Sequence record: OP778610
DNA: 64,000 bases
Source: Escherichia phage W70
Direction: 5' to 3' (one strand)
Positions 5,580-43,545 of the stretch are shown piece by piece (the stretch's first letter is position 1; each line of letters begins with the position of its first letter). The notes under the pieces are model-generated. The model had not been told where the DNA came from and did not search any database. It saw only the letters and a program-made list of their open reading frames with translations. Position numbers and translations under genes: made by a program.

Positions 5580-6188
5580 TCAATCACAACTGCTTGAAGA
5601 ACTGCTACTGCTACTATCCGAAGAATAACTATCGTAAGATGATGAGCTATCATACGAACTTGATCGACTTGGAGAACAGTAAGAACTTGAACTACTTGTA
5701 CGATCTTCACTGGATGACATTACGGCAGCATACGTTGCCACACCACCTAAAGCTGCCACCTGAGGATCAACCTGGCTAGTCCCGTACCCGTTTGGGGAGT
5801 CGCTCATCTTACGTGGTGCTGCCCGACGTGCCTGATCAATATACTGTCGCTTTGCCTTCGGCGGTAATTTCTTACCTTGAGCATAGGACGGTAATTCAAC
5901 GCCCTTCAGTTGTTCATCCAAGGACTTAGGCGGTGTAGCCTGAGCTTTTGGGCGTTCAATTGAGATATCTACAACCTTCATTGTTTTATCTTTAAGGTTT
6001 ACCCCTACCAACGCTTCATTTTCCTTTAGTGGTTCTTCTAAAGATCGTGTTTCAACTGGACTGAATTTAACGCTTGCAGTTTCTTGACGTTGTTCAGCTT
6101 GCTTTGCGATATACTTATCGATCGCCGCAGTTTCTACTTCCAGAGGAATAAATAATGATTTTACCCAAGCAACAAACTTCTTGATCAT
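5580..6188 (-). CDS. hypothetical protein with Ser-rich C-terminal tail
   Basis: C-terminal 50 aa almost entirely Ser/Tyr/Asp. Confidence 0.5.
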   Translation of the reverse strand: MIKKFVAWVKSLFIPLEVETAAIDKYIAKQAEQRQETASVKFSPVETRSLEEPLKENEALVGVNLKDKTMKVVDISIERPKAQATPPKSLDEQLKGVELPSYAQGKKLPPKAKRQYIDQARRAAPRKMSDSPNGYGTSQVDPQVAALGGVATYAAVMSSSEDRTSSSSSYCSPSRSSSYDSSSSYDSYSSDSSSSSSSSSCD

Positions 6189-6409
6189 ACTCTTTCTCCT
6201 TTTTCATCAATAACGATTAATGGCTCAATAACTAAAAGGCGCTGCTTCATAAGACTTTTTATAGTCTCATCGATATCAGATAGAAGAATATCTTTTTGAC
6301 TTTCTATCCAATTACGTGCTGCCTTTTCTGAAACAAATGCAATACCTTCTTGACCAATATCCCATTCACAGAATACTTTATACACCATCATCTTCTCCCT
6401 TGTCAACAT
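6185..6409 (-). CDS. hypothetical protein
   Basis: 74-aa ORF. Confidence 0.4.
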   Translation of the reverse strand: MLTREKMMVYKVFCEWDIGQEGIAFVSEKAARNWIESQKDILLSDIDETIKSLMKQRLLVIEPLIVIDEKGERV

Positions 6410-6695
6410 TTTTCGGATTAAGTTTCTTTTCTGCGGCCTTCAAAATAATATCCAGCTTTTCAATTTCCTTATGTAAAGGCTCAGATAATAACTTCTCACC
6501 AAAAAGCCAGAATTTCTTCATGCCTTTCTTAACGCACTTTCCCATAAAGCCCGCGAGGTCTTCTAGTCGCCAAGCAATAAAACTAAATATTGCAGCTAAA
6601 AGGTGAATCAAGGCCAGTAGTAAACGATGCGGGTTTAGTACAGCAAGGCACAGGATCATAAAGATTATTTTAGTAAAACCCCAAATAATTTTCAT
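6378..6695 (-). CDS. hypothetical membrane protein
   Basis: Hydrophobic N-terminus; start uncertain. Confidence 0.35.
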   Translation of the reverse strand: MKIIWGFTKIIFMILCLAVLNPHRLLLALIHLLAAIFSFIAWRLEDLAGFMGKCVKKGMKKFWLFGEKLLSEPLHKEIEKLDIILKAAEKKLNPKNVDKGEDDGV

Positions 6696-7078
6696 TCGTA
6701 ATTGATCTCCACTTTAACAATTTTACCAGTTTTATCATTGAATACTTCAATGTCATAGTATTCAACAACGCCTTCATCATCAAAAGAACTTTTTTGTTTG
6801 CAAGGTGATACCCAAAAACCGTGGATTACTGCCTCCTCCAGTCCGTCGGTATGTGATACAACACTCAATGTTGGGTAAGGGACCATAATAGGTTTTACCT
6901 CACCACAACCACACGTACAGCAAAATACTTCATCTTCTTCCAGTTGGTACAGTCGCTTTTCTGGAACAAAGGTCAGATGCGCCAAAGGATATTTAGAGAC
7001 GATGGCATTAATATAAGGTTTTCCTGCCAAGCTGTCAATAAATTCATTAAACTCTTTTCTATTTTTTGATAAGCTCAT
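6692..7078 (-). CDS. hypothetical Cys-cluster protein
   Basis: CCTCGCGE cysteine cluster. Confidence 0.45.
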   Translation of the reverse strand: MSLSKNRKEFNEFIDSLAGKPYINAIVSKYPLAHLTFVPEKRLYQLEEDEVFCCTCGCGEVKPIMVPYPTLSVVSHTDGLEEAVIHGFWVSPCKQKSSFDDEGVVEYYDIEVFNDKTGKIVKVEINYE

Positions 7079-7311
7079 CGAGTACCTCCAAAAATATTTA
7101 AAGCTTTAGAATAATCAATGTGACCTGGAACAGTGTGGGCCTCTTGTACAAGGCATTGCCGACAAATACGTGACACAACTGTTGTCTTGATCTCTTCTGT
7201 ATCGTAGAAGCGAGACATTACCTTTGTAACTTGATTGCATTGAGTAATAACAAAATCGTGTTTACAACTTGGTTTGTTTTCTTCAGTTTCTTTCTTTTTA
7301 AAAGGCCACAT
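7075..7311 (-). CDS. hypothetical Cys-rich protein
   Basis: CKHDF...CNQ...CRQC pattern. Confidence 0.4.
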   Translation of the reverse strand: MWPFKKKETEENKPSCKHDFVITQCNQVTKVMSRFYDTEEIKTTVVSRICRQCLVQEAHTVPGHIDYSKALNIFGGTR

Positions 7312-7319
7312 GGTGACTC

Positions 7320-7502
7320 CTATTCTTCAACTATTTCGTATTCATCTTTCAAGAGCATAAATTGATAGCCCTTGCCCTTATTCGCAATAATAGTACCAGA
7401 CGCGCTCTCTTTTGTCACGAAAAGAATTGAATCTTTTTGGACACCGTAATACTTAAGTTGCTCAAGCAGTTTGGTCTTTGATTCTAAGATTTTGACTTTC
7501 AT
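7320..7502 (-). CDS. hypothetical protein
   Basis: 60-aa ORF. Confidence 0.35.
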   Translation of the reverse strand: MKVKILESKTKLLEQLKYYGVQKDSILFVTKESASGTIIANKGKGYQFMLLKDEYEIVEE

Positions 7503-7597
7503 TAGATATCAATTACTACGATTTCAAGCATTGAGTTTTCAACAGCTTCCTTATGTTTTGCTGAGTAAAATTTCATTTAATTATCCTCTCTGCCAGT

Positions 7598-7864
7598 TTA
7601 TAATTTTTCTTTGCCTAAAGTAAGACTAATTTCGAAAGTTTTTGTGATAACTTTATCGTCTTTGTCGAAGAAATCAAATTGGACATAACTCTCGGTCGAA
7701 CTGACAACCAGACCTACAGAGACAGTCCCTTCTGGTACGAGAGCCTTATATTCTTCTTTTAGCACAACGTCGTAAAAATACAACGCTCCACAATAAACTT
7801 CATCCCAACCATCAAAAGATTCGATGAAAGCTTTTTCAATACCAACTAAAGTATTTTCTGACAT
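7598..7864 (-). CDS. hypothetical protein
   Basis: 88-aa ORF. Confidence 0.4.
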   Translation of the reverse strand: MSENTLVGIEKAFIESFDGWDEVYCGALYFYDVVLKEEYKALVPEGTVSVGLVVSSTESYVQFDFFDKDDKVITKTFEISLTLGKEKL

Positions 7865-7887
7865 TATATTATCCTCTTCGTTTCAAG

Positions 7888-8154
7888 TTAGATATAGTCT
7901 ACACCAGCTTGTTCCAACAAGTCAAGCCTTAATTTAAGTTCTTTTTCACGATAGTCGGAAACAAGTTTATCCTTTTTCTTTTCTTCTTCGTCGAACTGTT
8001 CGAGTGGAAGAATACGAATAATGTGCTCTGCCTTCATGTAGGACGTTGATCCGATAAGCTGAACATTACCATTTGGTAACAATCGACCCTTGATCACCCG
8101 ATAACGAGGGAACAAGTCATATTTAACAATCGCGGTAACTGCTAGATTACTCAT
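7888..8154 (-). CDS. hypothetical protein
   Basis: 88-aa ORF. Confidence 0.4.
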   Translation of the reverse strand: MSNLAVTAIVKYDLFPRYRVIKGRLLPNGNVQLIGSTSYMKAEHIIRILPLEQFDEEEKKKDKLVSDYREKELKLRLDLLEQAGVDYI

Positions 8155-8524
8155 GTGTATTCTCCATATCGCGAATTCGATCTTCTACCCAACCACGACG
8201 ATAAATGTTGAGGTAAGATTTACCTTTTGAACCATGATGGGCATATTCGTCAAAATCAAAATCAAAAGGCGTCTCGGTGTTAAGACCCGCATCAAAGAAT
8301 TGATTCTTCATTTCGAATTGCACTTTCATGTCTGGATCATTTTTACCTAAAAATGAAGACAAATTAAAACAAAGGCCAGCACCTCGGTAAAAAGCCCCAT
8401 CTTTTGGTGCACCGATATCTAACCATTTTTTATATTCTCGGTAGAAATTCAGAAGTTGCGGACTGCTTTTCATTTTGTTCTCCTCATTTGTTTTGATAGG
8501 ACTACTATAACATAGTCCTATCAA
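8147..8524 (-). CDS. hypothetical protein, paralog of 17859-18155
   Basis: Shares WLD-GAP...GLC...FxDAGL...PFD pattern with 17859-18155. Confidence 0.5.
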   Translation of the reverse strand: MIGLCYSSPIKTNEENKMKSSPQLLNFYREYKKWLDIGAPKDGAFYRGAGLCFNLSSFLGKNDPDMKVQFEMKNQFFDAGLNTETPFDFDFDEYAHHGSKGKSYLNIYRRGWVEDRIRDMENTHE

Positions 8525-8606
8525 CTTGTATACTATTTAATTAAAGATTTTATGAATGCTTGGTAGGACCCTTCTTTAAATACTCATCTGGATAATAAAA
8601 ATCATC

Positions 8607-8984
8607 CTATACTCCAAATGTGGATTTGATTTCAGCAATAACCTCATGCACATTGTTTTCGTTTACTTCAAATGTGTAGGACGTTGGTTTAAGGAACGTC
8701 TGAGGTGAAACATTAACAAAGAATTCAAATTCATCATTAAAAATTTCAAAGTATTTTCCAGGTGTTGATTCTTGGCTTTTGAAAACAGTACCATCTTCCA
8801 TAGTAACAGAAGAAACAGATTTTTCACCAAGGGTGTATGTTTTTAGCTCGTCAACAACGAAACTGGGGCCGTGGCGACGGAGTATTTCAACCATAGTTCG
8901 GTTAGCTCCACAAATACCAGTACGATTAATAAATAACTCTTCACACCGAGGATTGAGAATATAAGTTTTTCCTACTTGCATCAT
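8607..8984 (-). CDS. small-protein family member 1 of 3 (tandem)
   Basis: Starts M-QVGKTY-LNP, HGP-F-V core; similar to the two adjacent genes. Confidence 0.55.
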   Translation of the reverse strand: MMQVGKTYILNPRCEELFINRTGICGANRTMVEILRRHGPSFVVDELKTYTLGEKSVSSVTMEDGTVFKSQESTPGKYFEIFNDEFEFFVNVSPQTFLKPTSYTFEVNENNVHEVIAEIKSTFGV

Positions 8985-8994
8985 TACAATCTCC

Positions 8995-9354
8995 TTATGC
9001 TAAGTTAAATGTGGATTTGATCAGGTCAATAACCTCTTGTGCGTTGCTCTCCGACACAGATACCTGAATAATTTTAAGGTCGCTGACCTCTTCAAAGTAT
9101 TCGAACTCAGATTCACGAAGTTCAAAGTACATTGCCCCACAGCCCACACTGAATGAATCACACCCTACAGCACCATCTTCTGTTGTGATGTTATTAACAT
9201 ACTCATCACCTTCGATCATGCTCATGTTGTTAACAATAAATCGTGGCCCGTGCTCATCCAGAAAAGAAACAATCTCGTGATTGTAACTTGGGTCAGCCTG
9301 AATAAATTCTTCTACGAGTTTTGGATTAAGTTTATAAGTTTTTCCGACTTCCAT
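8995..9354 (-). CDS. small-protein family member 2 of 3
   Basis: MEVGKTYKLNP...HGPRFIVNN...LIKSTFNLA. Confidence 0.55.
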   Translation of the reverse strand: MEVGKTYKLNPKLVEEFIQADPSYNHEIVSFLDEHGPRFIVNNMSMIEGDEYVNNITTEDGAVGCDSFSVGCGAMYFELRESEFEYFEEVSDLKIIQVSVSESNAQEVIDLIKSTFNLA

Positions 9355-9365
9355 CTTTGTTCTCC

Positions 9366-9740
9366 TTACGCCAGGTTAAAGGTAGCTTTAATCAAATCTA
9401 AAGTTTCTTGTGCATTACTACGAGAGACGGCAACCTGAATAATAACAGGGTCTTCATCTTCCCCGACTTCTTTGAAGAAGGGAAATTCACTCTCTGCAAG
9501 TTCAAAGTATACACACTTGTTACCTTCGCAGTCGTGAAAAACGTCACTACCTAAAGTACCATCTTCAAATATGACATTGTTAACATATGCAACATTATCA
9601 TAGAAGTGGGTGGTGTTGACAACAAATTTAGGACCGTGCTTATAAATAAGGTCAACCAATTCTTGATTGTAGCTAGGGTCCATATTGATAAAAGCTTTTT
9701 CTAAGTCTTTATTAAGAATGTAAGTTTTTCCGATTTCCAT
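9366..9740 (-). CDS. small-protein family member 3 of 3
   Basis: Internal start MEIGKTYILNK with GAGGAG RBS; ends LIKATFNLA. Confidence 0.55.
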   Translation of the reverse strand: MEIGKTYILNKDLEKAFINMDPSYNQELVDLIYKHGPKFVVNTTHFYDNVAYVNNVIFEDGTLGSDVFHDCEGNKCVYFELAESEFPFFKEVGEDEDPVIIQVAVSRSNAQETLDLIKATFNLA

Positions 9741-9807
9741 CTTTGCTCTCCTCTTCAGTTGATGGATACATCTTAGTTGATATAGACATGTCTTGTCAAT
9801 AACTTTT

Positions 9808-9843
9808 TGCACATAAAAGAAAACCACCCTTCGGGGTGGTTTA
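9808..9843 (-). terminator. intrinsic terminator
   Basis: Minus-strand stem aaaccacccc-gaag-ggtggttt then T-run, downstream of polymerase exon 2. Confidence 0.6.
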
Positions 9844-9848
9844 AATTA

Positions 9849-10148
9849 CTAGTGGCACGCCCCCCAGTTCATCCCTGTGAGGTATTCACCTGTTATGTGG
9901 ACAGGAGATTTCATCATTCGTGCTGCTTGCTCTACACAACGAACAACCATCTCTCCAACTGGACAATACATGATCGTGTAGATTCCATTCTCATCAGGAT
10001 CACACTTAAACTTCCCTTCTTTCACACAATGACCATCCAAGATCATTTTCTTAGCCAAGCAAGCTTCTACAAATTTCTTCGCGTCAGCTTCGTTGTCAAA
10101 GGTCCAGGTCTTCTTGAACTTGTGCGGTACTTCAAGCTGGTATTCATC
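9849..10148 (-). CDS. DNA polymerase (family A), exon 2
   Basis: DEYQLEV completes motif C when joined to exon 1 (YYH|DE); C-terminus NWGACH like Pol I/T7 ...H terminus. Confidence 0.65.
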   Translation of the reverse strand, partial: DEYQLEVPHKFKKTWTFDNEADAKKFVEACLAKKMILDGHCVKEGKFKCDPDENGIYTIMYCPVGEMVVRCVEQAARMMKSPVHITGEYLTGMNWGACH

Positions 10149-10920
10149 CAAAAGTTTAACGAGGTCGTTACTCTCGCCCACATCATTACATGTTGCCATA
10201 CGTTTTCACATATGGATCGGACTATATCACCATCCTTTTCAGGATGCTCCCCATTTCGACGGCACTTGCTCGCCTACGCCTCTCGGCTAGTCTCTGAACG
10301 TTAGGACCATGTGTAGTCACAAGAGATGTGTGTCCAGTTTTTACGGATTTTTATGGACCTTACCACGTTGTAAGGATAACCCATATCCCGAATCTGTGCA
10401 CTTCCATAACCTTGCCCCAGGAAGTTGCAAATCTCTCTAACCTCTTCTTCGGTAACTATACTTCTGGCGTTATCAACCCCTGTTGCTGAACGACATTTAT
10501 CAGCAAAGGTTTTCTTGATATTTCCACCACGAGTTGTCCATTGGAGGTTTGAATAGTGGTTATTCCTTTTGTCAGGCCACTTATGATCAACCTCCGGCAA
10601 ACCTTCAGGGTTTGGTACAAAACACTCTGCCACCAAAACGTGAACAGCCTTTGTAGTCGTCCTTTTGTTGAGATACAGACTTACAATAAGATACCCACGT
10701 CCATTATCAACTGCCGCCATTGGTTTCCCTCGACGACCTATAATGGTCCCGTCTTCATAAACCTTGTAACCGAAATAATCTTTATATTCCACATGATCCT
10801 CTTCGCTGCTGATTAACATAGTCTCATACTAACTCACACTTGAATTAATATCAACCTTAGTCTTCCAGCAATTAAAGGAGTTTTCGATGTGAGTTACCTC
10901 ACAAAGCCACAATGTTACTT
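10149..10920 (-). mobile_element. group I intron in DNA polymerase gene, HNH-ORF-containing
   Basis: In-frame stop right after exon 1; core elements GACTAGCCGAGAGGCGTAG and GATATAGTCC on minus strand; ends in G before exon 2. Confidence 0.65.
10301..10819 (-). CDS. HNH homing endonuclease (intron-encoded)
   Basis: LPEVDHKWPDKRNNHYSNLQWTT HNH-type motif; lies inside intron. Confidence 0.7.
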   Translation of the reverse strand: MLISSEEDHVEYKDYFGYKVYEDGTIIGRRGKPMAAVDNGRGYLIVSLYLNKRTTTKAVHVLVAECFVPNPEGLPEVDHKWPDKRNNHYSNLQWTTRGGNIKKTFADKCRSATGVDNARSIVTEEEVREICNFLGQGYGSAQIRDMGYPYNVVRSIKIRKNWTHISCDYTWS

Positions 10921-13251
10921 ATGGTAATAGATAATACGTCTAACGCCTTCATCATACCAACCTTTCTTAACCAACTGCCAGTGCAGGAGGATACCCACCA
11001 AGTCAAACAGTGCAGCACCACCATTCTGCTGATAAGCATTAAGCAATGAGTGTTTGGAACGAGTGTAGATCTTACGTCCATCAAGACCGTAGATGAATCG
11101 CTTACCGTTAGCTTCCCAAAACTTCTCTAGTGCTTCTTTACGACCTTTCAAGCCGATGTTGCTATCCCAGAATGCGTCGATTACTGCCTGGGCCTTCTCA
11201 AGAGTGATCCCCAGCATTGATGCAATCTTCGCTGCCTGTGCCCCGTACATAATTCCGTATGTCACACCTTTACCTTCACCACGAGAAACCTTCTTCCCTG
11301 CCGCTTTGGTATACGCTTCTGCGTTTCGGGAGTGAGCATCTCCAGATTCCATGATACGAAGATAAGCACCGCCATCGAAATCATAAGCGCCCCATGCTGC
11401 GATCATACCTTCTAGGTTTGAACCGTCGATACCTACCTGATATTTACCCTCAGAGGCTCTGAATAGTTCACGCATCTCTTTACCGAGAAGAACTTTCTCA
11501 TCCGGCTTAGGTACGTTTGCTACGATCGTATGCTTACGACGACCTGTGTTAGTTATTCCACTATAACGGGCCGGAAGTTTACCGTCAACTCGTAGACGTG
11601 GATGGTTAAGCCATCCGGTATCAACCTTCTCTTCTTTCAGCGGGTCAAGAACAGATCGTCGGTTACGTAAAGACAGCCATTTAACAATCTGTTTAGCCAT
11701 TTCACCATCTACTCGCTCAAGGTTAGGGCAAAGACCCTGTTGATCCTTAAGTTGTGGAGATGTAGGTAATGCACGAGCTTTCTTACGGAAAAACTTGAAC
11801 ATCTTTTCTTTATCTGACCACTGCTTAGGTGTGATCGCCAAGCTTTTCAGAATCAGATCACGATACTCCGTCTGATCCAAATCTTCAATGTATTGACGAA
11901 CAATCAGATCAACTTCACTATCGGGACGTTGTTTCTTGAACTGATCTTTAGTTGCATCCTTTGTACGCCAAATTGTTGGGACCCATCCTGCATCACGGAT
12001 CAGGAACTTCTTAACGTCGTCCTGGTTACCAATACGCATCGGAATCATAATGTCCGGCATCTTTTGTTCTTTGATATCCATCAAAGCACGAGCCATATCT
12101 TCCGGCGGCAAAGGAACAAGCCCTTGCTGCTTAACGTTTTGTGCACGGATAAAATCACCCATTTTGGATTCGTCCTCTACACCGTGTTCAACACAATACT
12201 TGATCGCGGCAGCAGTAAGAGATCCGTCAGCCTTAAACGGCTTACTTGGTGCACCTTTAAATTCCAAGGCTTCCCAATTGATATTATAACCTAACTTCTC
12301 TAACCATTTCCAACCTGTACCGGAAAGAGATCCATCACCCTTGAAAGGTTTGGATGGGAATGTCGGTTGTGCTGATTTCGACATCTCTTTCTTCGGCAAC
12401 TTAGGTTCAACCTCTAACTCAATGTCAGTCATCATCTTATCGATACGATCACGAAGCTTGAGTGCTTTTTCTTCATCAAATGAAACACCCTGAATTTCTT
12501 GCTCAATCATCAGGTAGTCAGTCAACATACCTCGACGCAGGGCATTCTTCCAGTTGATCATTTTATACTTCTTCTGATCTTTGTCTGTTTCATCCTTAAA
12601 CATGAAGCGTTTATCATCCGGCATGGATTCACAGGAGATCTCTTTCATCAGAGCATCCCACACCATTTCGTTGATAATTACGTCTTCAATAATACGATCG
12701 CAATACTTCCAAAGTGGAAGGCCACGCCAATCTTCAATCGCCACTTTCTGGTTAGCTACTCGCATACCCCAAGCTTCAAGCCCGTGTGGCCCTACAGGCT
12801 TCATTTTACCTGTGACGGGGTTCTTTACCATCTCAGGACAACCGCGAGGCAGAGGGCGATCTGGATACAATGTACGGGACATTGAAAGTGTATCGAAGAT
12901 GGTTACTTGTTTACCATTGATCGTCCCCATGCAACCAGGGTCTGCAAACATATCGTAAGTTGTTCCTAGCATCTTCTTAAACAACTGGAGGTCATAGCCG
13001 AAGATGTTGTGGATAGCAACTGCTTTAGGCTCGGTAACGAACCATTCGTTTAATTCTTCAAGGGTGCGGATCTTGAAGTTTTTACCTTTAGATTGGATAA
13101 ATTTAACAGCTTGATCGTAACCTTCTCGCTGTGGATCAAGAAAGATGTTCCAGTTATCTTTTTTGTACTCTTTAAACAAGATGCAGTGGATTAGATCAAC
13201 TTCTGTCAACAGACCATTAGCTTCCGCATCTCCAATAAATAAGCCTTTCAT
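10921..13251 (-). CDS. DNA polymerase (family A), exon 1
   Basis: N-terminal FIGDAEANG 3'-5' exo motif; KKVSRGEGKGVTYGIMYGAQAAKIA resembles motif B; ORF stops one codon after ...YYH. Confidence 0.75.
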
Positions 13252-13288
13252 TTTTTCTCCTTCTTTTAAACTCCAACTAGACTAAAAC

Positions 13289-13325
13289 AAAGCCTAGCCG
13301 GAGGTATGACCCTTCGGCTAGGTTA
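13289..13325 (-). terminator. possible intrinsic terminator
   Basis: Stem cctagccg...cggctagg followed by T-rich run on minus strand. Confidence 0.35.
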
Positions 13326-13417
13326 TCAAAAGTGTCGGTATCCTTCATCAACAAAATAAAGTATTACCAAGATGGCAAACACGACACCCAAGAATATTAA
13401 TCCTAGTGAAGTTGGCA

Positions 13418-13693
13418 TCAGTCTTCTATTACCTCAAATTCATCATTAAAAGCTACGATAGTTTCACCGTAGCCCATGTTTAATCGGGCAGTTGTAGGTT
13501 TGCCATTCCTAGATAGATAGTACACCCTCGCTTCGTAAATGTCACCAACTTTTACACCGTAAGCCTGTAGGTCTTTGTTATTGATATCTTTATTTTCAGC
13601 ATTGATTATTCGAACACTGCTGATCTCTGAGTATACAGAATTATCTTTCATCAGTATTTTTCCTCTGGACGGAAAACTCCACGGCAAGCCCAC
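13418..13693 (-). CDS. hypothetical protein
   Basis: 91-aa ORF. Confidence 0.4.
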   Translation of the reverse strand: MGLPWSFPSRGKILMKDNSVYSEISSVRIINAENKDINNKDLQAYGVKVGDIYEARVYYLSRNGKPTTARLNMGYGETIVAFNDEFEVIED

Positions 13694-13941
13694 ATACTTG
13701 CTTCTTTGAGGCGATCTTTAGCCTTAGATAAGCAATCAGATGCAAAAAGCACGGAATCTAGATCCCCTTCGGGAATCGAAGAGTCATTAGCCAGTCGATT
13801 ATATTCCTCAATAATCTCGTCTTCTAATGCTTTTAAAATAAGACCTAAACGAATTTCAGCATCTTTAATGGCATTCACCTTACCGATTTTTTCATCGGTG
13901 TGTGGTTTGTAGCCCTTAATGTCATCAATAGCCATTACCAA
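13651..13941 (-). CDS. hypothetical protein
   Basis: 96-aa ORF. Confidence 0.4.
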   Translation of the reverse strand: MVMAIDDIKGYKPHTDEKIGKVNAIKDAEIRLGLILKALEDEIIEEYNRLANDSSIPEGDLDSVLFASDCLSKAKDRLKEASMWACRGVFRPEEKY

Positions 13942-14423
13942 TCCTCTTCTGTTTGTTCATACTCGGAAGGGGTGATGAAGTAATTCTGCCCCCGCTTGCA
14001 CTGGTTGAAAGTCCCAACATACCAAGTACCGATATCCATGTTGATGAAAGTTTCTTCTTGAACAAAGATCAGATCAGTAAGATTATTGTCTGATCGTTGG
14101 GTCGCTAACAAAATATGCTCAAAATCTGCTAATGTTATGTTGTAACAGAAACCATCTTCGTCCTCCATAACTGCAACAACAGAGCTACGCCCTTGGGTGA
14201 ATTGACGAAACTGTAAACGTAAATGACGATGTTCATGTTCATTCGTCTTCACCTTTTTCCGATTTTCGAAATATTCTTCGGAATAATTTGGATGCTTTAA
14301 TTTCAGCTTTTCGATCTCTTCGGTAGAAAGAGCATCCTTATCCCAACCAGTAAACCATTTACCGTTATCATTAAATACCGCAGGGTATTTACGCTTACTC
14401 AAATCTTTAAACATTTGAATCAT
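13935..14423 (-). CDS. hypothetical protein
   Basis: 162-aa ORF. Confidence 0.5.
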   Translation of the reverse strand: MIQMFKDLSKRKYPAVFNDNGKWFTGWDKDALSTEEIEKLKLKHPNYSEEYFENRKKVKTNEHEHRHLRLQFRQFTQGRSSVVAVMEDEDGFCYNITLADFEHILLATQRSDNNLTDLIFVQEETFINMDIGTWYVGTFNQCKRGQNYFITPSEYEQTEEDW

Positions 14424-14733
14424 CTCCTTCAGCTAGGCTACGAATATACTTGAAAATTTCTTCATGATCATTACCAAATGCAACATATCCCTTTTCAGCA
14501 TCAAGTCCATAATTATGCTCTATTTTCTCTAAAAAGCAATTTCCGTAAGTAATTTTTTCAACCAGGGGATCGGATTCTGAAAAACCCAACCCAAAAGCTT
14601 TCCAGTGCTCACGTTTAAGCTCCACGTATTCCCACGGTTTATCTCCATCGTGGAATAACACAAGGGTGTCTTGATCTTTCTTTTCTACATTGACATGACC
14701 ATAAAATCCACTGGGCGATTTGTTAAATTTCAT
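14407..14733 (-). CDS. hypothetical protein
   Basis: Internal start chosen to limit overlap with upstream gene. Confidence 0.4.
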   Translation of the reverse strand: MKFNKSPSGFYGHVNVEKKDQDTLVLFHDGDKPWEYVELKREHWKAFGLGFSESDPLVEKITYGNCFLEKIEHNYGLDAEKGYVAFGNDHEEIFKYIRSLAEGDDSNV

Positions 14734-15055
14734 AATCTTCTCCGTAAATATCTTTAATTTTTGAACTGAGGTATCCAGGATCGCAGCCATCATACCACAC
14801 TTCTACGAAAACCTTTTGGGAATCTTTGATGATCTTTGCCCCGACTCTTTCAATCCCCTTGAAGAAAGATTGTAAGATGTAATCATCTAACACGTTTACT
14901 CCATAAGCATCGTGGAGGGATTTTTCATCGTGAACATACACAACCATCTTACCATCATACGTAACTTGAATGCAAGGGTCATCTTCCCAAGTAATAGCCG
15001 GAGAATCCGGCTCAAGCTTTGCAATAACACCAATAGTCAATCGGTTGTCACTCAC
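14723..15055 (-). CDS. hypothetical protein
   Basis: 110-aa ORF. Confidence 0.45.
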   Translation of the reverse strand: MSDNRLTIGVIAKLEPDSPAITWEDDPCIQVTYDGKMVVYVHDEKSLHDAYGVNVLDDYILQSFFKGIERVGAKIIKDSQKVFVEVWYDGCDPGYLSSKIKDIYGEDYEI

Positions 15056-16269
15056 TCTTTACCCCCTGCGATGCGTAACATTTGGATAGTTTTCTCCAGT
15101 TCTTTACGAGGTTTGGCAACTAAACGACGTTCGTGTCGCTTCAGGAAGCCTTCTAAGAACTCTAACGGTTTAAAGGATAACACTTCCTGTACTGATTCGT
15201 CAACAGCATACTCTTTCTGGACCATACGATAAACCGGATTTTTTACAGTTACAGGAGTATAACCCTTACTGATCGCCATTTGGGTAACAACACGCTTCTT
15301 GCCATCGGTCCATGAGTCATCGATCGGGAAAGAATCTTTACCGTATTTTTCAGAGAATAACTTAACTGCTGTTTTTGTCAAGTCATCCTGATCTTCTTGT
15401 GTTCGACTTTGACCCCAATAATAACCACCAGAGGTCTTAGCACGACGTTCCGAGAACAAAGCAAGGTCATCGTACTGCTCAAGAGCTAAACGCGCCAGAA
15501 GCTCGATATCGTCGCTTTCTGACAGCAGTCGGTTTGCTTCGTACTTAACTTCAAAAGTATTTGCACTATCACGATCACGGTCAAGGGTGAAAGCTTCTGG
15601 CTTGAAGTCGTAATCGAATTTAAAATTACCTGGAACACGAGTAACGAACAGTCCATTTACAAACAGGTTGCAGTCACCGCCTGTGATAGATCCATCCTCT
15701 TCTTCATTTTGGTATTCGTCCGCAGCATTATACAGTTTAGTATAAGCTTTGCCGCGATCATTCTGAATAACGACTGTACGTTCAGTGGTTGGCGCATAGT
15801 TATTCATAATTTCAGACATAGCACAATGAGGGATGTTTTCAATGATCACAGTTACAGTATTTGAATCACGGCCTGACAAAGCCTTTTCATGGATATCTAC
15901 CGCCAAAATATTCTGTTCGTATACTGTATCATAAACCATATTTGGAATCCAAAGATCATTACCATTTTCGATAACAATGTCTGCACCTTCACGAACAAGC
16001 ACCAGAAGACCTACTTTCAGACCTTCACCAAACTTACCGATCTTGCTGTCATCATCACGTTTGGTTGAAACACCCATCAAAAGGCCGGAAACGGGAACAA
16101 CACCGCCACGAGAGATGATTGTGATCTTACCTTGATTACTATCATCTTTACTAAAATAAATATTGAAATCTTCTGTATCGATAGCATTTTGCATTAGTTC
16201 ACGAGCACCTTGCCACCATGACCAGTGACTGACGTAATTTTCAGTGATGCTCAATTTAATCTGTTTCAT
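15052..16269 (-). CDS. GHKL-family ATPase-like protein
   Basis: N-box-like RELMQNAIDT and G2-box-like GKFGEGLKVG near N-terminus; start overlaps upstream stop. Confidence 0.5.
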   Translation of the reverse strand: MKQIKLSITENYVSHWSWWQGARELMQNAIDTEDFNIYFSKDDSNQGKITIISRGGVVPVSGLLMGVSTKRDDDSKIGKFGEGLKVGLLVLVREGADIVIENGNDLWIPNMVYDTVYEQNILAVDIHEKALSGRDSNTVTVIIENIPHCAMSEIMNNYAPTTERTVVIQNDRGKAYTKLYNAADEYQNEEEDGSITGGDCNLFVNGLFVTRVPGNFKFDYDFKPEAFTLDRDRDSANTFEVKYEANRLLSESDDIELLARLALEQYDDLALFSERRAKTSGGYYWGQSRTQEDQDDLTKTAVKLFSEKYGKDSFPIDDSWTDGKKRVVTQMAISKGYTPVTVKNPVYRMVQKEYAVDESVQEVLSFKPLEFLEGFLKRHERRLVAKPRKELEKTIQMLRIAGGKE

Positions 16270-19352: not shown

Positions 19353-19414
19353 TTGTTTCTCCTTTCTGTTTGGTATGGGGGAAGTATAGGGGAGTTTAGG
19401 AGGGGTGTCAATAG

Positions 19415-19442
19415 AAAAACCGCCCGAAGGCGGTTTATTTTG
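19415..19442 (-). terminator. intrinsic terminator
   Basis: Stem aaccgcc-ttcg-ggcggtt then T-run on minus strand; same hairpin recurs at 53504. Confidence 0.65.
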
Positions 19443-19449
19443 AAAAATA

Positions 19450-19971
19450 TCAGAAAGGTGCTTCGTCGTCGAAATCTACATCTTCAACTTCCGGTACATC
19501 AGGAATGTCACCTGCGGATTCAACGATACTCTGTTGTTCCCACGTAGGTTCCTCTGAAGGTTGGTCCATTTCTTCCATAACCTTCTTGATCTCTTCCTCT
19601 TGCTCACGCAGGAAGTTATCATCCGGCTCAGGAATATCTTCCTCTTTAATATCTGAACGAGTGAGATCACTGTTTTGTTCAGACAGAGGTTGAATCTCTG
19701 CTGCTTTAGGCTTAAAGTCTGGAGAACGATGATCATCTTCTGGATGAGCGGCATACCACTCACGAAGAGTTTCATAAGGACTCTCTAAGAAGCCCTCTGG
19801 CGGTTCCAGATAATCACCCGTATCAATGTCATAGAACACAGGGAATTTACCAGCACGACCGTGTTTACGGTCATCCAGAATAACAAAGTAAGAAGTGTTA
19901 CGTTGTTTCATCGGGAGTTCTGGATCTTTGTTACGTTCAATTCCCCACATATAGTAAGTATTCTTTATGTC
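19450..19971 (-). CDS. primase-helicase (T7 gp4-like), exon 3 with acidic C-terminal tail
   Basis: GIERNKDPE...VILDDRKHGRAGKFPVFYDIDTGDYLEP parallels T7 gp4 C-terminal region; ends DVDFDDEAPF. Confidence 0.6.
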   Translation of the reverse strand, partial: DIKNTYYMWGIERNKDPELPMKQRNTSYFVILDDRKHGRAGKFPVFYDIDTGDYLEPPEGFLESPYETLREWYAAHPEDDHRSPDFKPKAAEIQPLSEQNSDLTRSDIKEEDIPEPDDNFLREQEEEIKKVMEEMDQPSEEPTWEQQSIVESAGDIPDVPEVEDVDFDDEAPF

Positions 19972-20808
19972 CAGGCTACTCGCTAGGTAGCCTCGGTGTG
20001 CTAAGACACCCGCCCATACTTTCATACAGGAACAGACTATATCATCACCTTTCGGTGCTCTCCACTTCGGAACCGCTTGGTCCCTACGCCTTTCGGCTAG
20101 TCGTTGAAGATTTTGCATATTCAGGATACATGGTCCAAGTATACAGATTGGCAATTTCTTTCCAATCCCTTTTGCTTCGGATGTTTAGAACAACCGCCCT
20201 TTTAACTTGAATGCCACTACTTTCGGCTATTCTCTTTGCAGTCCATCCCTCTGAAAGTAACTGGCATATCTTATGCACGTCGTTTTCAGAAAGTCCGGTA
20301 CTGTAATGATCTTGCCCTCTAATTGGTAATTTGTTTTCTATCGAGTGTCGAAGATTTTCCTCTTCTGTTACCCACTCAAGGTTATCTTTATGATTGTTCA
20401 ACTTATTACCGTCTTTATGATTTACCTCTGGTAAATTTAAAGGGTTTGGTATATAAGCCTTCGCGACCATCCTGTGAACATACTCAGGCTTCCGCTTACC
20501 ATTTAAGATAACATTAACAACAAAATACCCTGTACCCTTACTTAATGAATTTTTAAGGAATCTTCCTGAAAATTCACTAAAAACTTGTCCATCTTCAGTG
20601 ATAAAGTATGGACTGTTTTCTTCTATTCTTACCATAAGTCCCCTCTTTCATGGGACCAAGATCTAGAATATGCAACTTTCCTGCTGATTACCCAATCCTG
20701 TACCTTTTTAAACATTCACGCTTGCCTTTGCAGACTACGTTGTAGTGTTACAGGCTCTAAGGGCTTCCCAGCAATTCAAAGAGTTTTAGATGCGCTCTAC
20801 TGCTGTTA
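19972..20808 (-). mobile_element. group I intron in primase-helicase gene, HNH-ORF-containing
   Basis: Stop directly after exon 2; core GACTAGCCGAAAGGCGTAG and GATATAGTCTG; 3' boundary approximate. Confidence 0.6.
20084..20635 (-). CDS. HNH homing endonuclease (intron-encoded)
   Basis: LPEVNHKDGNKLNNHKDNLEWVT HNH-type motif. Confidence 0.7.
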   Translation of the reverse strand: MVRIEENSPYFITEDGQVFSEFSGRFLKNSLSKGTGYFVVNVILNGKRKPEYVHRMVAKAYIPNPLNLPEVNHKDGNKLNNHKDNLEWVTEEENLRHSIENKLPIRGQDHYSTGLSENDVHKICQLLSEGWTAKRIAESSGIQVKRAVVLNIRSKRDWKEIANLYTWTMYPEYAKSSTTSRKA

Positions 20809-21399
20809 ACGCATCATTGCACGGCTACCAGCAAACTGCGCTGACTGGACTTGACCACCAAATTCATGAGGCTTGCCAGATTCAGGCTTATTAAGGTGAC
20901 AGAAGCAATAATAAGTAAAGCCAAGCTCTTTTGCCAGTTTGGAGATCTCATCCGAGAATCGTTCCAGTTCCTGGTTAGCTTCAGAAGCACTCATACCTTG
21001 CACAAGACGAGTGATCGGGTCAATAAAGATATCTTCACAACCTTCTACGATCACTGCGTGACGGATAGCACCTTTCAGTTCATCCCATACTGCACGACCA
21101 TAGTTGTTATAATAGATAACACTATCACCAACTTCATCAGTAGCTTTGATCAGTTCTTCTTGCTTAAAGTATCCACGTTGACCTTCAAAAACTTCATTGC
21201 CCCAAATGTCACGGTAAGTTCCATCTTCTTGAGGAATCATTACCTTTTCGGCATTAACAAAGTCTTTATGATAACGCTTACCTGCGATCTTCTTACAAGT
21301 GATCTCGTTCTCTTCTTCAAACTTAAACACCGCAGCTTTTGACTTTTCAATACCCGTGATGTGTTCAACCATTTGGTTAAGAAGTTCAGACTTGCCCAT
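20809..21399 (-). CDS. primase-helicase, exon 2 (helicase core)
   Basis: Starts MGKS (Walker A remainder); IFIDPITRL Walker B-like; FCHLNK and QFAGSRAMM helicase motifs. Confidence 0.65.
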
Positions 21400-21688
21400 T
21401 TTCACCGTTATGTTCGACAGGGTTCGCTACTCCCTGCCCGTTCTCTTACGAACTGCTACATGTCCCCATGCAGACCAGACTATATCTTCAACCTGTTTCC
21501 AGGTGCTATGCACTTCGGACCGCTTGGCCCTACTCTACTCGATTCAAGAGTCTAGCTCTTGTCTTTCGATAGTCGTTGCTCCTTCCTTTTTCAAGGCTTG
21601 GATCAGGATTACGTGTTCTACGCTTCCCCTGAGTTCACATAGTATTTAGTCGAGGCATCTCTGCCAAGGCTGGCTAGACTTAATGTTT
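21400..21688 (-). mobile_element. group I intron in primase-helicase gene, ORF-less
   Basis: About 290 nt between exon 1 ...IGAG and exon 2 MGKS...; core GCTAGACTC and GAAGATATAGTCTGG; no ORF. Confidence 0.6.
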
Positions 21689-22624
21689 ACCAGCACCGAT
21701 GAAGTAACCTTCACCTGGACGACGACCCAAGGTAAGCTTGGTCATGGTGGGCCAAGGGAACTTCTTGCCGAGTTTAGGGATCTCATGTGCCTTTTCGCGG
21801 AACTGTGAATAAGTCGAGAAACCATCAGGCACATATTCTTTTGGCTTCATTGCAGCCCAAAACAACTGATCAGAAAGACCTTTGTTATACATATCGCAAG
21901 GGTCCATATCTTCTGGAATATCCACGACCTTCATTTGTGGAATTACAGAGTATACCGCTGCAACTGCATCTTTACCTTTCATGATCCCTTTGGCCTTCTC
22001 TGCTTCTGTCGCACGGTCAGCATCGAAAGCTACGATAATCTCTTCAAACTTACTCAGAAGCTTATAGTTATTCTTCTGTGATAAGTTTTGCACGGCATTG
22101 GATGTACCGTTAGAGATAGATACAACTGTGAAGTTTGGTTTACGAGTGGAACCATCCTTCGGTTTGTACTTCTCTGTCAATACCTGCCACAAGATTGCAG
22201 CATCGTATTCACCTTCAGTGATAAAGATCATACGTTTGGAAGACTTGTTTGCACCTTCCAGACCAAACATATCACAGGCTACAGATTGGAAACCGATAGT
22301 TGTAAAGTGCCCTTTCTGTTGCTTAGGGATCGTAAGATCACGCTTTTTAAAACCTACAACCTTACCTTCCAATGTGTACGGAAAATAATGTGCTTCTGGA
22401 GTCATACCGTCTTTAGCTGACAACTTGGTACGAATACCAAATCGTTTAGCTGTCTTTTCGTCGATACCACGCTCAGGGATACTTTTACACGGGTAAGTCA
22501 ATACATCTTCAACTGTTTCTTCCACACGAGACACACCGCCGCCATAATTACGTGCCACCGAAGCTTTAGGGTTTTTATGTCCAAACTTATAACCGCCAAA
22601 CAAACTTTCGCCAATAGTGCTCAT
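21689..22624 (-). CDS. primase-helicase, exon 1 (TOPRIM primase domain)
   Basis: TOPRIM motifs ITEGEYDA and FDADRA; ends GEGYFIGAG (start of Walker A). Confidence 0.7.
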
Positions 22625-22781
22625 TACTGCTCCTTGATCATCGTCGCCAAATAAATAGTGTTACCGTTTGAATTAATGCCTGCTGTTACAGGACCCATCA
22701 ATTTATAACCATAATCGTAATGCTTCAGTATATATTTTTGAAGAGACAACAAATTTGTATACGATAGGATCTTAATGTCCA

Positions 22782-25687: not shown

Positions 25688-26199
25688 TTCTTCTTCTCCT
25701 CTTTGTCTTTATAAAAGATGTGATTTTCTATGGTTACTGTTCTTTTTAGAAGTTTACGCCAAACGGGTTTAACCTTCTTCGTATGATAATACAGAGATCC
25801 ATATGTCGGGTCAAACCTTTTGTACAAAATCTCGTTATTTTTTAGCTTATGTACGAATTTTGATATACTAAGAGCACCCTCCCAAGAATCTTTATCTGTT
25901 ATATTATAGGAAGATTTGGTTAGTGTCCACGAGAACTGAGAGGCTTGATACACAACACCCTTCATAGTGGTTGGGAACTTATCATGCTTCATACGATTCA
26001 TAGTTACGAATGCAACAGCCATTTGACCATTGACCGTTTCTCCTCTCGCTTCCATATAAACATTGCAAGCTAAGGCATTAATAGAGTTATCCTTTTTAGT
26101 GCATTTGTGGATAACTTTCTGTGCTCTCTCTTTGGCATAAGTAACGCCTGGTGCCAGAGACAGAGTACAAATAAAACTATATAATACTAATTTCTTCAT
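25684..26199 (-). CDS. secreted cell-wall hydrolase (SleB/Hydrolase_2-like)
   Basis: Signal peptide MKKLVLYSFICTLSLAPGVTYA; NVYMEARGE...AVAFVTMNR motif. Confidence 0.55.
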   Translation of the reverse strand: MKKLVLYSFICTLSLAPGVTYAKERAQKVIHKCTKKDNSINALACNVYMEARGETVNGQMAVAFVTMNRMKHDKFPTTMKGVVYQASQFSWTLTKSSYNITDKDSWEGALSISKFVHKLKNNEILYKRFDPTYGSLYYHTKKVKPVWRKLLKRTVTIENHIFYKDKEEKKK

Positions 26200-26245
26200 T
26201 TTCCCTCCAATTGAGGACCCAGCTTATCACTGGGTCGCTCTCTTG

Positions 26246-26632
26246 TCAACTACCTTCTGTATGCTTTTTAATTTGGTCAGCGATCCCTTTCCATAGGCCG
26301 TTAAGGAAAGGGTTGCTTGTGATTACCTCGCCTAACCAGGGGCCGTACAGGCGATATACGTAGTCATCTGTGATCGCATAGATACTTCCATCCCGTACAG
26401 CCAGTCCACGCACAAGAGATGTTGTTACACGACGGCCTGCGAATCCAGTTTTTTGATATTCAACTTCTGTATTCTCAATATAACCGACCAAATTCACAAG
26501 GTTTTGTGTCCCATCAATTGTAAAACCACACTTATTTTCAAGATCTTCTGAAATAGTGCTGATCCCTTCTAGTGAGAAGTTGCCACCGAACTTTAGGCCA
26601 TACTTAGCTGCAAGTTTATCGTGCGCTGTCAT
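26246..26632 (-). CDS. hypothetical protein
   Basis: 128-aa ORF. Confidence 0.5.
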   Translation of the reverse strand: MTAHDKLAAKYGLKFGGNFSLEGISTISEDLENKCGFTIDGTQNLVNLVGYIENTEVEYQKTGFAGRRVTTSLVRGLAVRDGSIYAITDDYVYRLYGPWLGEVITSNPFLNGLWKGIADQIKKHTEGS

Positions 26633-43189: not shown

Positions 43190-43485
43190 TGATTAAAGTT
43201 ATTGCACTTACTGCCTTATTGTGTATACCATTTTTGGCGCACGGTACTAAGTTTTACGGTGCTAACTTGATAGATTGTAAAGCTCATATGCTGGACCATG
43301 AAACAGGCAACAAATTTGTTAAGCCTTTCCAGATCAATCCGGCGGTGTTTACTGACGGTGTTTTATATCAGGAAGGTAAAGCCAGTACGCTGATAATCCA
43401 TTACGATCCAGCGACAAAGAAAGGTAGTTTATCAATCCAGGTTGAAGGCGCGGAAGAGTTTTCAGGTAAAATAATCTGCAATTAA
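43186..43485 (+). CDS. secreted or periplasmic protein
   Basis: N-terminal signal-like MIKVIALTALLCIPFLAHG. Confidence 0.5.
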   Translation: MMIKVIALTALLCIPFLAHGTKFYGANLIDCKAHMLDHETGNKFVKPFQINPAVFTDGVLYQEGKASTLIIHYDPATKKGSLSIQVEGAEEFSGKIICN

Positions 43486-43545
43486 TATGTTAAGGCCCGC
43501 CATTGTGCGGGCCTTTCTTTTATGAAAATAATTTTGAAAATGTTG

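Follow-up and report, generated by a model that had tools for sequence, protein, structure and literature searches.

Escherichia phage W70 raises the question of how a helicase can be made from a gene that appears to be broken twice, once within the Walker A loop and once within helicase motif H4. In the 64,000-nucleotide (nt) stretch of its genome analysed here (sequence record OP778610; hereafter the window), three consecutive open reading frames (ORFs) lie on the minus strand at 22624..21680, 21405..20806 and 20154..19450. They end, respectively, in GAGKH, AMMR and DEAPF, each followed by a stop codon, and a further ORF of 183 amino acids (aa) stands between the second and the third. The original prediction read the three ORFs as successive parts of a T7 gp4-like primase-helicase gene interrupted by two group I introns. 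The analyses described below lead to a closely similar answer: minus-strand interval 22624..19450 is very probably one T7 gp4-like helicase gene with a TOPRIM domain and two phase-0 group I introns, whose splicing we infer from features of the sequence.

A probable helicase gene in three exons

The nearest phage genomes are those of the E. coli Vequintavirinae A7_1, A5-4, UPEC06, A73 and LTH01. Two of these, A73 and LTH01, carry a single uninterrupted primase/helicase gene of 2046 nt (A73_82 in A73), and a BLAST comparison with A73 splits the helicase region of the window into three blocks that are contiguous in A73. Exon 1 matches the A73_82 coding sequence as far as 21689. A few ambiguous junction bases were settled by the rules for group I introns, which place a U before the 5' splice site and a G as the last base of the intron; a U accordingly closes exons 1 and 2 (position -1), and the terminal intron bases are G at 21406 and 19963. 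The layout is as follows:

22624-21689, minus strand: exon 1 (312 codons), coding for the N-terminal region plus the TOPRIM domain as far as ...GEGYFIGAG; U at 21689 is its last nucleotide
21688-21406, minus strand: intron 1, 283 nt, phase 0, ORF-less, between G312 and V313
21405-20809, minus strand: exon 2, 199 codons, VKMGKS...QFAGSRAMMR, from the remainder of Walker A to the first half of motif H4; last nucleotide U at 20809
20808-19963, minus strand: intron 2, 846 nt, phase 0, between R511 and N512, with an HNH ORF inside
19962-19450, minus strand: exon 3, 170 codons plus stop, starting NTYYMWGIERNK and ending in the acidic tail ...DVDFDDEAPF
19417-19436, minus strand: terminator-like hairpin with a T-run, directly 3' of the helicase stop codon

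When joined, the exons encode 681 aa, equal in length to the A73 protein and differing from it at 10 positions (~98.5% identity). Intron 1 lies within Walker A, at GAG/VKMGKS (the slash marks the insertion site), and intron 2 within helicase motif H4, at AMMR/NTYY. Intron 1 contains an in-frame stop after three codons (AAA CAT TAA) and intron 2 opens with an in-frame UAA, so that unspliced RNA would yield truncated protein only. A terminator scan revealed no terminator-like site inside either intron. An intein reading of the inserts was considered and rejected, as stop codons stand at the intron starts and the frame is not continuous. These junctions uphold the sizes first proposed for the introns, about 290 nt without an ORF and about 840 nt with an HNH gene. 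The proposed extents, 21400-21688 and 19972-20808, were right at their 5' ends and 6 and 9 nt off at their 3' ends; the rebuilt P-loop is GAGVKMGKS and not GAGMGKS, two residues (VK) having been missed, and exon 3 begins with NTYYMWGIERNK rather than at GIERNK.

Alignment of the spliced product with T7 gp4 structures (5ikn, 1.9e-20; 6n7i, 5.6e-20) covers residues 51-529 in one stretch that crosses both junctions, and so bears out the idea that the three ORFs are parts of one gp4-like protein; T7 itself is matched by this protein at 2e-15, and gp4-like genes occur in about 2,000 phage records. The motifs ITEGEYDA and FDADRA, taken from the outset to belong to a TOPRIM domain, align with VTEGEIDM and FDMDEA of T7, the sites of the catalytic Glu and of DxD in TOPRIM; the gp4 counterpart of exon 1 is the RNA-polymerase/TOPRIM part. 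The Walker A lysine motif is matched by MGKS, and CHL..P and GS....ERN are likewise aligned to gp4. Around the second junction, GSRAMMR/NTYY aligns with GSGALRQ/LSDT of T7, and the chain offsets lead to gp4 Q494/L495, which we take to lie in helicase motif 4 on the basis of the T7 motif-4 mutants R487C, G488D and S496F. Among Pfam models, DnaB_C passes its cutoff (31.9 bits; cutoff 27) and Toprim_2 is weak and below its own (17.3 bits; cutoff 22.1). The acidic C-terminal tail with an aromatic end, ...DVDFDDEAPF, is present with its terminal Phe as first described, and presumably serves as a polymerase contact, as in T7.

The designation primase-helicase stands for the helicase and TOPRIM parts and falters at the N-terminus. 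The Cys4 zinc-binding domain of T7 gp4A was not found there, the first 50 residues containing one Cys and no CxxC, and the gp4 alignment starts no earlier than gp4 residue 83. In this respect the product is like the gp4B form; its primase function is putative, and another gene might supply the primase. Autographiviridae homologs keep the zinc-domain cysteines (for example CPAC...C.H in Kp_Z1), in contrast to the portion of the window protein encoded at 22475-22624, and a small ORF just upstream (22785-22624) has no Cys either.

Structure and covariation of the two predicted ribozymes

The Rfam scan of the whole window returned one match above threshold, to the group I intron model RF00028 (21721-21456, minus strand; 70.4 bits, E=8e-16; gathering score 50). 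This match to intron 1 is full-length (model positions 1-253), and the following helices can be assigned:

21669..21694, minus strand: P1 of intron 1, exon GCUGGU (21694-21689) with guide GCCAGC (21674-21669), 6 base pairs (bp), U-G wobble at the splice site
Minus strand: P2 of intron 1, 4 bp with a GAGA loop
Minus strand: P3 of intron 1, CUAUGUG with UGCAUAG
Minus strand: P4, P5, P6, P9, P9.1 and P9.2 of intron 1, all present and fully complementary
21585..21596, minus strand: P6a of intron 1, a CCUU-GAAA-AAGG mini-hairpin
21478..21574, minus strand: core of intron 1, P7 GACUA (21574-21570) with UAGUC (21482-21478)
Within this P7, minus strand: P7.1 at 21569-21539, P7.2 at 21530-21517, P3 3' strand at 21510-21506, and P8 at 21504-21491 with a GAAA loop

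An unconstrained minimum-free-energy fold of intron 1 recovers helices P1-P9.2 except for the P3/P7 pseudoknot (P7 is not formed). Covariation was assessed with ORFs trimmed in six sequences, namely the window, A7_1, UPEC06, Klebsiella phage vB_Kp_Z1, Vibrio phage JSF38 and Erwinia phage VL73. Standard pairs fill 97% of the 330 pair cells, and compensatory changes are found in 21 of the 55 pairs, P3 included. None of 500 shuffles reaches the observed value, and sliding the partners by 1-3 columns leaves 26-42% paired. P7 is invariant in this family, hence uninformative on covariation. P8 was kept in the count despite misplaced gaps in three of the sequences, which lowers the score. An alignment of eight sequences, adding intron 2 and an intron of the DNA polymerase gene to the intron 1 family, misaligned the 5' halves, and the intron 1 and intron 2 families were therefore analysed separately. 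Two core elements had originally been ascribed to both introns; GATATAGTC is indeed found in both, whereas GACTAG forms the 5' strand of P7 in intron 2 only, the corresponding strand of intron 1 being GACTAT.

For intron 2, the covariance-model check predicted to recover both introns succeeded less well. A permissive Rfam scan of 19400-22700 yielded a second RF00028 match at 20301-20013 with a sub-threshold 25.3 bits (E=0.0013), its 3' part (CAACGACUA...GAUAUAGUC...) aligned at high posterior probability and its 5' part poorly. Intron 1 served as a control: its ORF-bearing copies from A7_1 and UPEC06, with a core ~99% identical to the 70-bit copy, scored no gathering-threshold match, and a gathering-threshold scan of the ORF-bearing relatives (A7_1, UPEC06, Kp_Z1, JSF38, VL73) plus nine IMG/VR loci gave no matches. 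The failure of these copies implies that the ~550-nt P6 ORF and the long P5 extension of intron 2 suffice for its low score. The helices of intron 2 and its ORF are:

20789..20815, minus strand: P1 of intron 2, exon GAUGCGU (20815-20809) with guide GCGCAUC (20795-20789), 7 bp, U-G wobble at the splice site
Minus strand: P3 of intron 2, CUCUUU with GGAGAG (3' strand 20063-20058)
Minus strand: P4 of intron 2, UGCUG with CAGCA
Minus strand: P5 of intron 2, with a long extension
20113..20675, minus strand: P6 of intron 2, UUGCAUAUUC (20675-20666) with GAAUAUGCAA (20122-20113), 10 bp, the stem of the ORF-bearing loop
20035..20102, minus strand: core of intron 2, P7 GACUA (20102-20098) with UAGUC (20039-20035), enclosing P7.1, P7.2, the P3 3' strand and P8
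Minus strand: P7.1, P7.2, P8, P9, P9.1 and P9.2 of intron 2, present and complementary
20635-20084, minus strand: HNH ORF of intron 2, 183 aa, lying in the P6 loop, with GAGGGG 6 nt upstream of the AUG

P2 is absent from intron 2, as judged by a helix search of the intron. With the P6 loop swapped for GAAA, intron 2 folds at -103 kcal/mol (z=-4.25 against shuffles), and this ORF-trimmed fold recovers P1, P4-P6 and P7.1-P9.2, that is, all the non-pseudoknotted helices. Two hairpins, P7.1 and P7.2, separate the 5' strand of P7 from the 3' strand of P3 in both introns. By this feature both appear IA-like, belonging to subgroup IA of Michel and Westhof, in keeping with the type first suggested for them.

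Homologs of intron 2 occupy the identical site in metagenomic contigs (L021, L023 and L025/L026), with HNH proteins 71-77% identical to that of W70. In these same-site relatives the exon ends ...AUGAUGCGU and the intron ends ...GGACAAUAAG, followed by AAC ACN UAY UAY AUG. Across the four members of this family, 98.8% of 256 pair cells (64 pairs) are paired. Nine pairs are compensatory, and they are located in P5, P5a, P5 sub-helices, P6, P9 and P9.1. No shuffle out of 500 attains the observed value, and slid partners are 30-48% paired. P7.2 and P9.2 were left out of the pair count on account of gap placement and assessed by eye; in the homologs they consist of wholly different yet complementary sequences. 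Searches based on intron 2 found little elsewhere: its nucleotide sequence gave only short core matches in the phage collection (at most 28% coverage), a tblastn search with its HNH protein gave nothing above 43% identity, and the exon 2/intron 2 junction had no exact match in IMG/VR. In a large protein collection, relatives of the HNH protein at 70-79% identity are present in metagenome assemblies.

The ORF within intron 2 contains a Pfam HNH_3 domain at residues 52-96 (34.5 bits against a cutoff of 24.8; 1.6e-8), and its last ~17 codons overlap the P6 3' strand, J6/7, P7 and P7.1. The product is presumably an HNH homing endonuclease, with cleavage of the intron-less allele as its putative activity. 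Its ribosome-binding site, GAGGGG, lies within a possible hairpin, GUCCC...GGGAC (20620-20665, minus strand). If this putative hairpin forms, the HNH start would possibly be masked in a manner resembling the structure-masked starts of the T4 intron ORFs.

From this anatomy a course of expression can be proposed. The gene, an essential one for a replicative helicase, would be transcribed as one pre-mRNA, from which the two IA-like introns would remove themselves by guanosine-initiated, two-step transesterification. In P1, the guide sequence would pair with the last six to seven exon bases, with the U-G wobble marking the cleavage site, and the terminal G of the intron would then dock for exon ligation. 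Splicing would join GGU to GUG and CGU to AAU in frame, restoring the GAGVKMGKS Walker A loop and motif H4.

Distribution, mobility and competing explanations

The two introns are patchily distributed among the closest phages. Both are absent from A73 and LTH01, and the first occurs with an HNH gene in A7_1, A5-4 and UPEC06. In these three phages it is the same intron with a 467-nt insert in P6a. The insert codes for an HNH protein of 165 aa, and the final codons overlap P6a', P7 and P7.1; outside the P6a loop, intron 1 of the window differs from that of A7_1 by one base. The GenBank record of A7_1 places a coding sequence, A71_175 (L002 2755-3258), inside intron 1 on the strand opposite to the 165-aa HNH ORF annotated in A5-4 and UPEC06; A71_175 is probably a mis-call. 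A survey of 42 related phage records found 39 uninterrupted across both sites and the other three, A7_1, A5-4 and UPEC06, interrupted at site 1 only, so that the intron 2 site is interrupted in 0 of the 42. The three-exon arrangement is not unique to W70, since the 149-kb metagenomic contig L021 has introns at both of the window's sites, the one in Walker A with a different HNH.

Sequences flanking the insertion sites bear signatures of their own. Those around junction 1 are near-identical among the carriers of intron 1, in contrast to intron-less A73, which shows 23 mismatches in ~180 nt around the junction (synonymous near the site) against ~2-3 per 60 nt elsewhere; A5-4 shifts to the A73 pattern 12 nt downstream of the junction, at what marks the edge of a tract. 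Junction 2 reads AAT ACT TAC TAT ... A in the window only, with synonymous changes at +3, +9, +12 and +21, and A7_1 and UPEC06 have an A at -1 instead of the required U. On a larger scale, the window is 100% identical to A73 over 6000-15500 and mosaic beyond, its segments standing closest now to A73, now to A7_1; from exon 2 through intron 1 into exon 1 (20750-22500) it matches A7_1 at 98-100% identity. Such a pattern would be expected if intron 1 had arrived by recombination with an A7_1-like donor; general mosaicism might also account for the flank pattern. A further segment, 25750-26500, is ~100% identical to A7_1 and 84-89% identical to A73. The mosaic over 6000-30000 indicates recent recombination among co-circulating Septuagintavirus phages.

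At the DNA level both introns are very probably mobile elements. In a mixed infection, the HNH enzyme of intron 2 would cut intron-less alleles, and repair would copy the intron together with some flanking exon, a putative activity to which the patchy occurrence and the altered exon flanks lend indirect support. Intron 1 is an A7_1-type intron with P6a reduced to a GAAA-capped mini-hairpin, most likely by loss of the ORF. With its P6a ORF missing, it would move only via ordinary recombination or an endonuclease acting in trans, and splicing would still be feasible. The opposite history, in which the ORF-less form is ancestral and an HNH gene invaded P6a in the lineage of A7_1, A5-4 and UPEC06, seems unlikely. 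Invasion of introns by endonuclease ORFs is well documented, and the P6a of the window is not a simple deletion derivative of that of A7_1, reading CCTTGAAAAAGG where a clean deletion would leave CCTTGAGAGG. Against this, the window core is one base removed from that of A7_1, whereas the ORF-bearing copies of A7_1 and UPEC06 have drifted apart (HNH 85% identical) and contig L019 has an HNH of this lineage as well (70-73%). These two findings imply that the ORF-bearing state is older than the split between the window and A7_1.

Introns related to intron 1 are found at three or more further positions in other gp4-like genes:

GAGTGV/GKT, 8 nt downstream of the window's site 1: introns of the Klebsiella phages vB_Kp_Z1 and Roth32
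GAGVKMG/KS, 12 nt downstream of the window's site 1: intron of L019 (IMG/VR contig 3300031942_000080)
FVDA/WWQP, in the primase-helicase linker: introns of Vibrio phage JSF38 and Erwinia phage VL73

All of these belong to the intron 1 lineage, with a 3' domain ~85% identical, helices in common and changes that are compensatory; every one carries an HNH in P6a (that of L019 is 70-73% identical to those of A5-4 and UPEC06), and the guide sequence of each is complementary to its own exon. Insertion in Walker A is found at two of these sites, the Kp_Z1 type and L019, so that three positions no more than 12 nt from the Walker A codons are occupied by related ribozymes, and a further one lies in the linker. 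The introns of JSF38 (L007 1852-2591) and VL73 (L008 1853-2591) combine cores of the intron 1 lineage with the 5' exon GAUGCGU and guide GCGCAU seen in intron 2, which could be a coincidence, the result of an exchange between intron lineages, or a retargeting to a matching sequence. It is conceivable, though doubtful, that the introns of gp4 genes form one mobile family retargeting over short distances, with intron 1 of W70 hitch-hiking with intron 2. If true, the gp4 genes would provide a natural record of ectopic site-shifting, through reverse splicing or through imprecise transposition driven by the endonuclease, with the guide sequence repaired afterwards. The mere 597 bp between intron 1 of W70 and intron 2 may be what allowed intron 1 to shed its endonuclease; it could travel in the co-conversion tract made by the intron 2 HNH, the pair homing as a unit.

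Several observations weigh against the view that both introns splice. In phage CB7 one of the HNH introns reportedly fails to splice (PMC7344957), and anatomy alone is therefore not proof of splicing. Intron 2, at 25.3 bits, lies under the Rfam gathering score of 50, and its covariation is based on four sequences only. No convincing P10 pairing was seen by eye for intron 1, and the pairing for intron 2 is weak; a 4-bp P10 (UACU with AGUA) that uses the window-specific U at +3 is possible in intron 2 and is speculative.

Every fragment of the gene is an ORF with a possible start, exon 2 beginning GUG AAA AUG, and the helicase might on these grounds be truly fragmented, with inserts that stay in the RNA and two or three separately translated polypeptides that assemble, as is said to be the case for NrdA of Aeromonas phage Aeh1, which is split by mobE. 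The HNH insert of CB7 that failed to splice in reverse-transcription PCR (RT-PCR) would fit such an arrangement (PMC7344957). We nevertheless regard it as very improbable for W70, where complete covarying cores, the U-G pair of P1 and the terminal G occur exactly where the A73 frame is restored. The first break, moreover, falls inside the Walker A loop (GAG/VKMGKS), and a split P-loop is unlikely to work; exon 3 also has no plausible 5' start, the listed ORF beginning 192 nt upstream, within the intron.

Decay of one intron, with a non-splicing insert and a helicase pseudogene as its outcome, is an explanation to which we give very little credence. It would most likely concern intron 2, because of its low covariance-model score of 25.3 bits for RF00028, and the want of a close copy of this intron in the phage genome collection would agree with it. 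Yet the core helices of intron 2 are all intact, a diverged version of it persists, with compensatory changes, at the identical site of at least three further phage contigs, and ORF-bearing copies of the well-scoring intron 1 fail Rfam in the same way. The exons, too, are strongly conserved (98.5% protein identity to A73), and W70 is a cultured, plaque-forming isolate (PMC11370258). That the inserts are artefacts of assembly or chimera formation is barely credible: an independent contig in Logan (SRR31617738) contains the intron 2 region at 98.9% identity, the HNH protein of intron 2 has a 100% identical counterpart in the NCBI entry 'HNH homing endonuclease [Escherichia phage W70]', the published W70 table lists W70_66 as helicase, W70_67 as HNH and W70_68 as helicase, and homologous arrangements exist in other assemblies. 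A single helicase gene with two self-splicing introns accordingly stays the favoured reading of the locus.

Neighbouring features, precedents and significance

Elsewhere in the window, a third group I intron of 772 nt lies at 10149-10920 on the minus strand (RF00028, 39.7 bits, E=1.2e-6) with an HNH ORF at 10301-10819. The DNA polymerase gene is thereby divided into exon 1 (13251-10921) and exon 2 (10148-9849); a U occupies -1 and a G position 10149, the junction having been placed by reference to the uninterrupted polymerase of A7_1. The intron is 100% identical in A73 and missing from A7_1, and its core resembles that of intron 2 in having no P2 and a P3 of CUCCUU with GGGGAG; its P1 looks weak, at ~4 bp. 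Just downstream of the polymerase gene, at 8607-9827 on the minus strand, a tandem gene family is made up of three neighbouring ORFs (~120-150 aa), clear paralogs that share the start M.VGKTY.LNP and the end IKSTF(N/G). Directly after the helicase terminator, a strong sigma-70-like promoter match at 19383-19411 on the minus strand (TTGACA, 17-nt spacer, TATACT; 11/12) suggests a possible boundary between transcription units. A weak Rfam Trp_leader match at 43437-43520 on the plus strand (28.2 bits against 41, E=0.14) is most likely due to chance.

Group I introns bearing HNH genes are classical in phage genes for replication and nucleotide metabolism. The td, nrdB and sunY introns of T4 (subgroup IA2) share with those of W70 the P7.1/P7.2 architecture and an ORF in the P6/P6a loop that runs into the core, as well as insertion at conserved codons of a DNA-metabolism gene, patchy presence among close relatives and flank signatures of co-conversion. 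The W70 introns differ in their gp4-like primase-helicase host gene, in the HNH type of the endonuclease, where the td and sunY introns carry GIY-YIG enzymes, and in the occurrence of two introns 597 nt apart in one gene. Introns in the DNA polymerase genes of T7-like phages were reportedly described by Bonocora and Shub; a group I intron in a T7-type replication gene is common to both cases, and here the host gene is a gp4 homolog in a myovirus of ~140 kb. In the related Certrevirus CB7, HNH introns interrupt terL, the DNA polymerase gene, nrdA and nrdB, with splicing shown by RT-PCR (PMC7344957). CB7 resembles W70 in belonging to a related phage group and in having several HNH introns per genome, two of them in the DNA polymerase gene, which also holds an intron in the window; it differs in that its primase-helicase is uninterrupted and is not listed as an intron target (PMC7344957).

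Inteins are familiar residents of the P-loop in DnaB and gp41-type helicases (see also PMC4760082). They and intron 1 alike target the Walker A of a superfamily 4 replicative helicase. In W70, however, removal would take place at the RNA level, to judge from the ribozyme structure, the stops at the intron starts and the lack of in-frame read-through. Introns in gp4-like primase-helicase genes were not described in any paper that our literature searches turned up, and the introns at the Walker A and H4 sites can be regarded as new members of a well-known type of element at sites for which no description was found.

The findings bear directly on the published annotation of these phages. In the 2024 paper on W70, A73, A7_1 and A5-4 (genus Septuagintavirus), the words 'intron', 'homing' and 'HNH' are absent from the main text, and helicases unique to A73 (one) and to W70 (two) were taken as evidence of different replication strategies (PMC11370258). 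Its Table S5 lists W70_66 and W70_68 as primase/helicases and W70_67 as an HNH protein, all W70-only, and A73_82 as an A73-only helicase (PMC11370258). W70_66, W70_67 and W70_68 correspond to exon 3, the HNH ORF and exon 2 of the gene that is uninterrupted in A73 as A73_82, and the published inference needs correcting. The same fragmentation of the gene is found in the GenBank records of A7_1, A5-4 and UPEC06 and in several Autographiviridae records, with the consequence that orthogroup and core-genome analyses of these phages miscount.

The helicase gene of W70 adds a further case of selfish elements lodged at the most conserved catalytic codons, in a superfamily 4 P-loop better known as an intein site. 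W70, A73, A7_1 and A5-4 are near-identical cultured phages of E. coli K-12 that differ in three introns, those of Walker A (present with its ORF, present without it, or absent), of H4 and of the DNA polymerase gene, and are suited to measuring homing, co-conversion, loss of the endonuclease ORF and the fitness cost of an intron.

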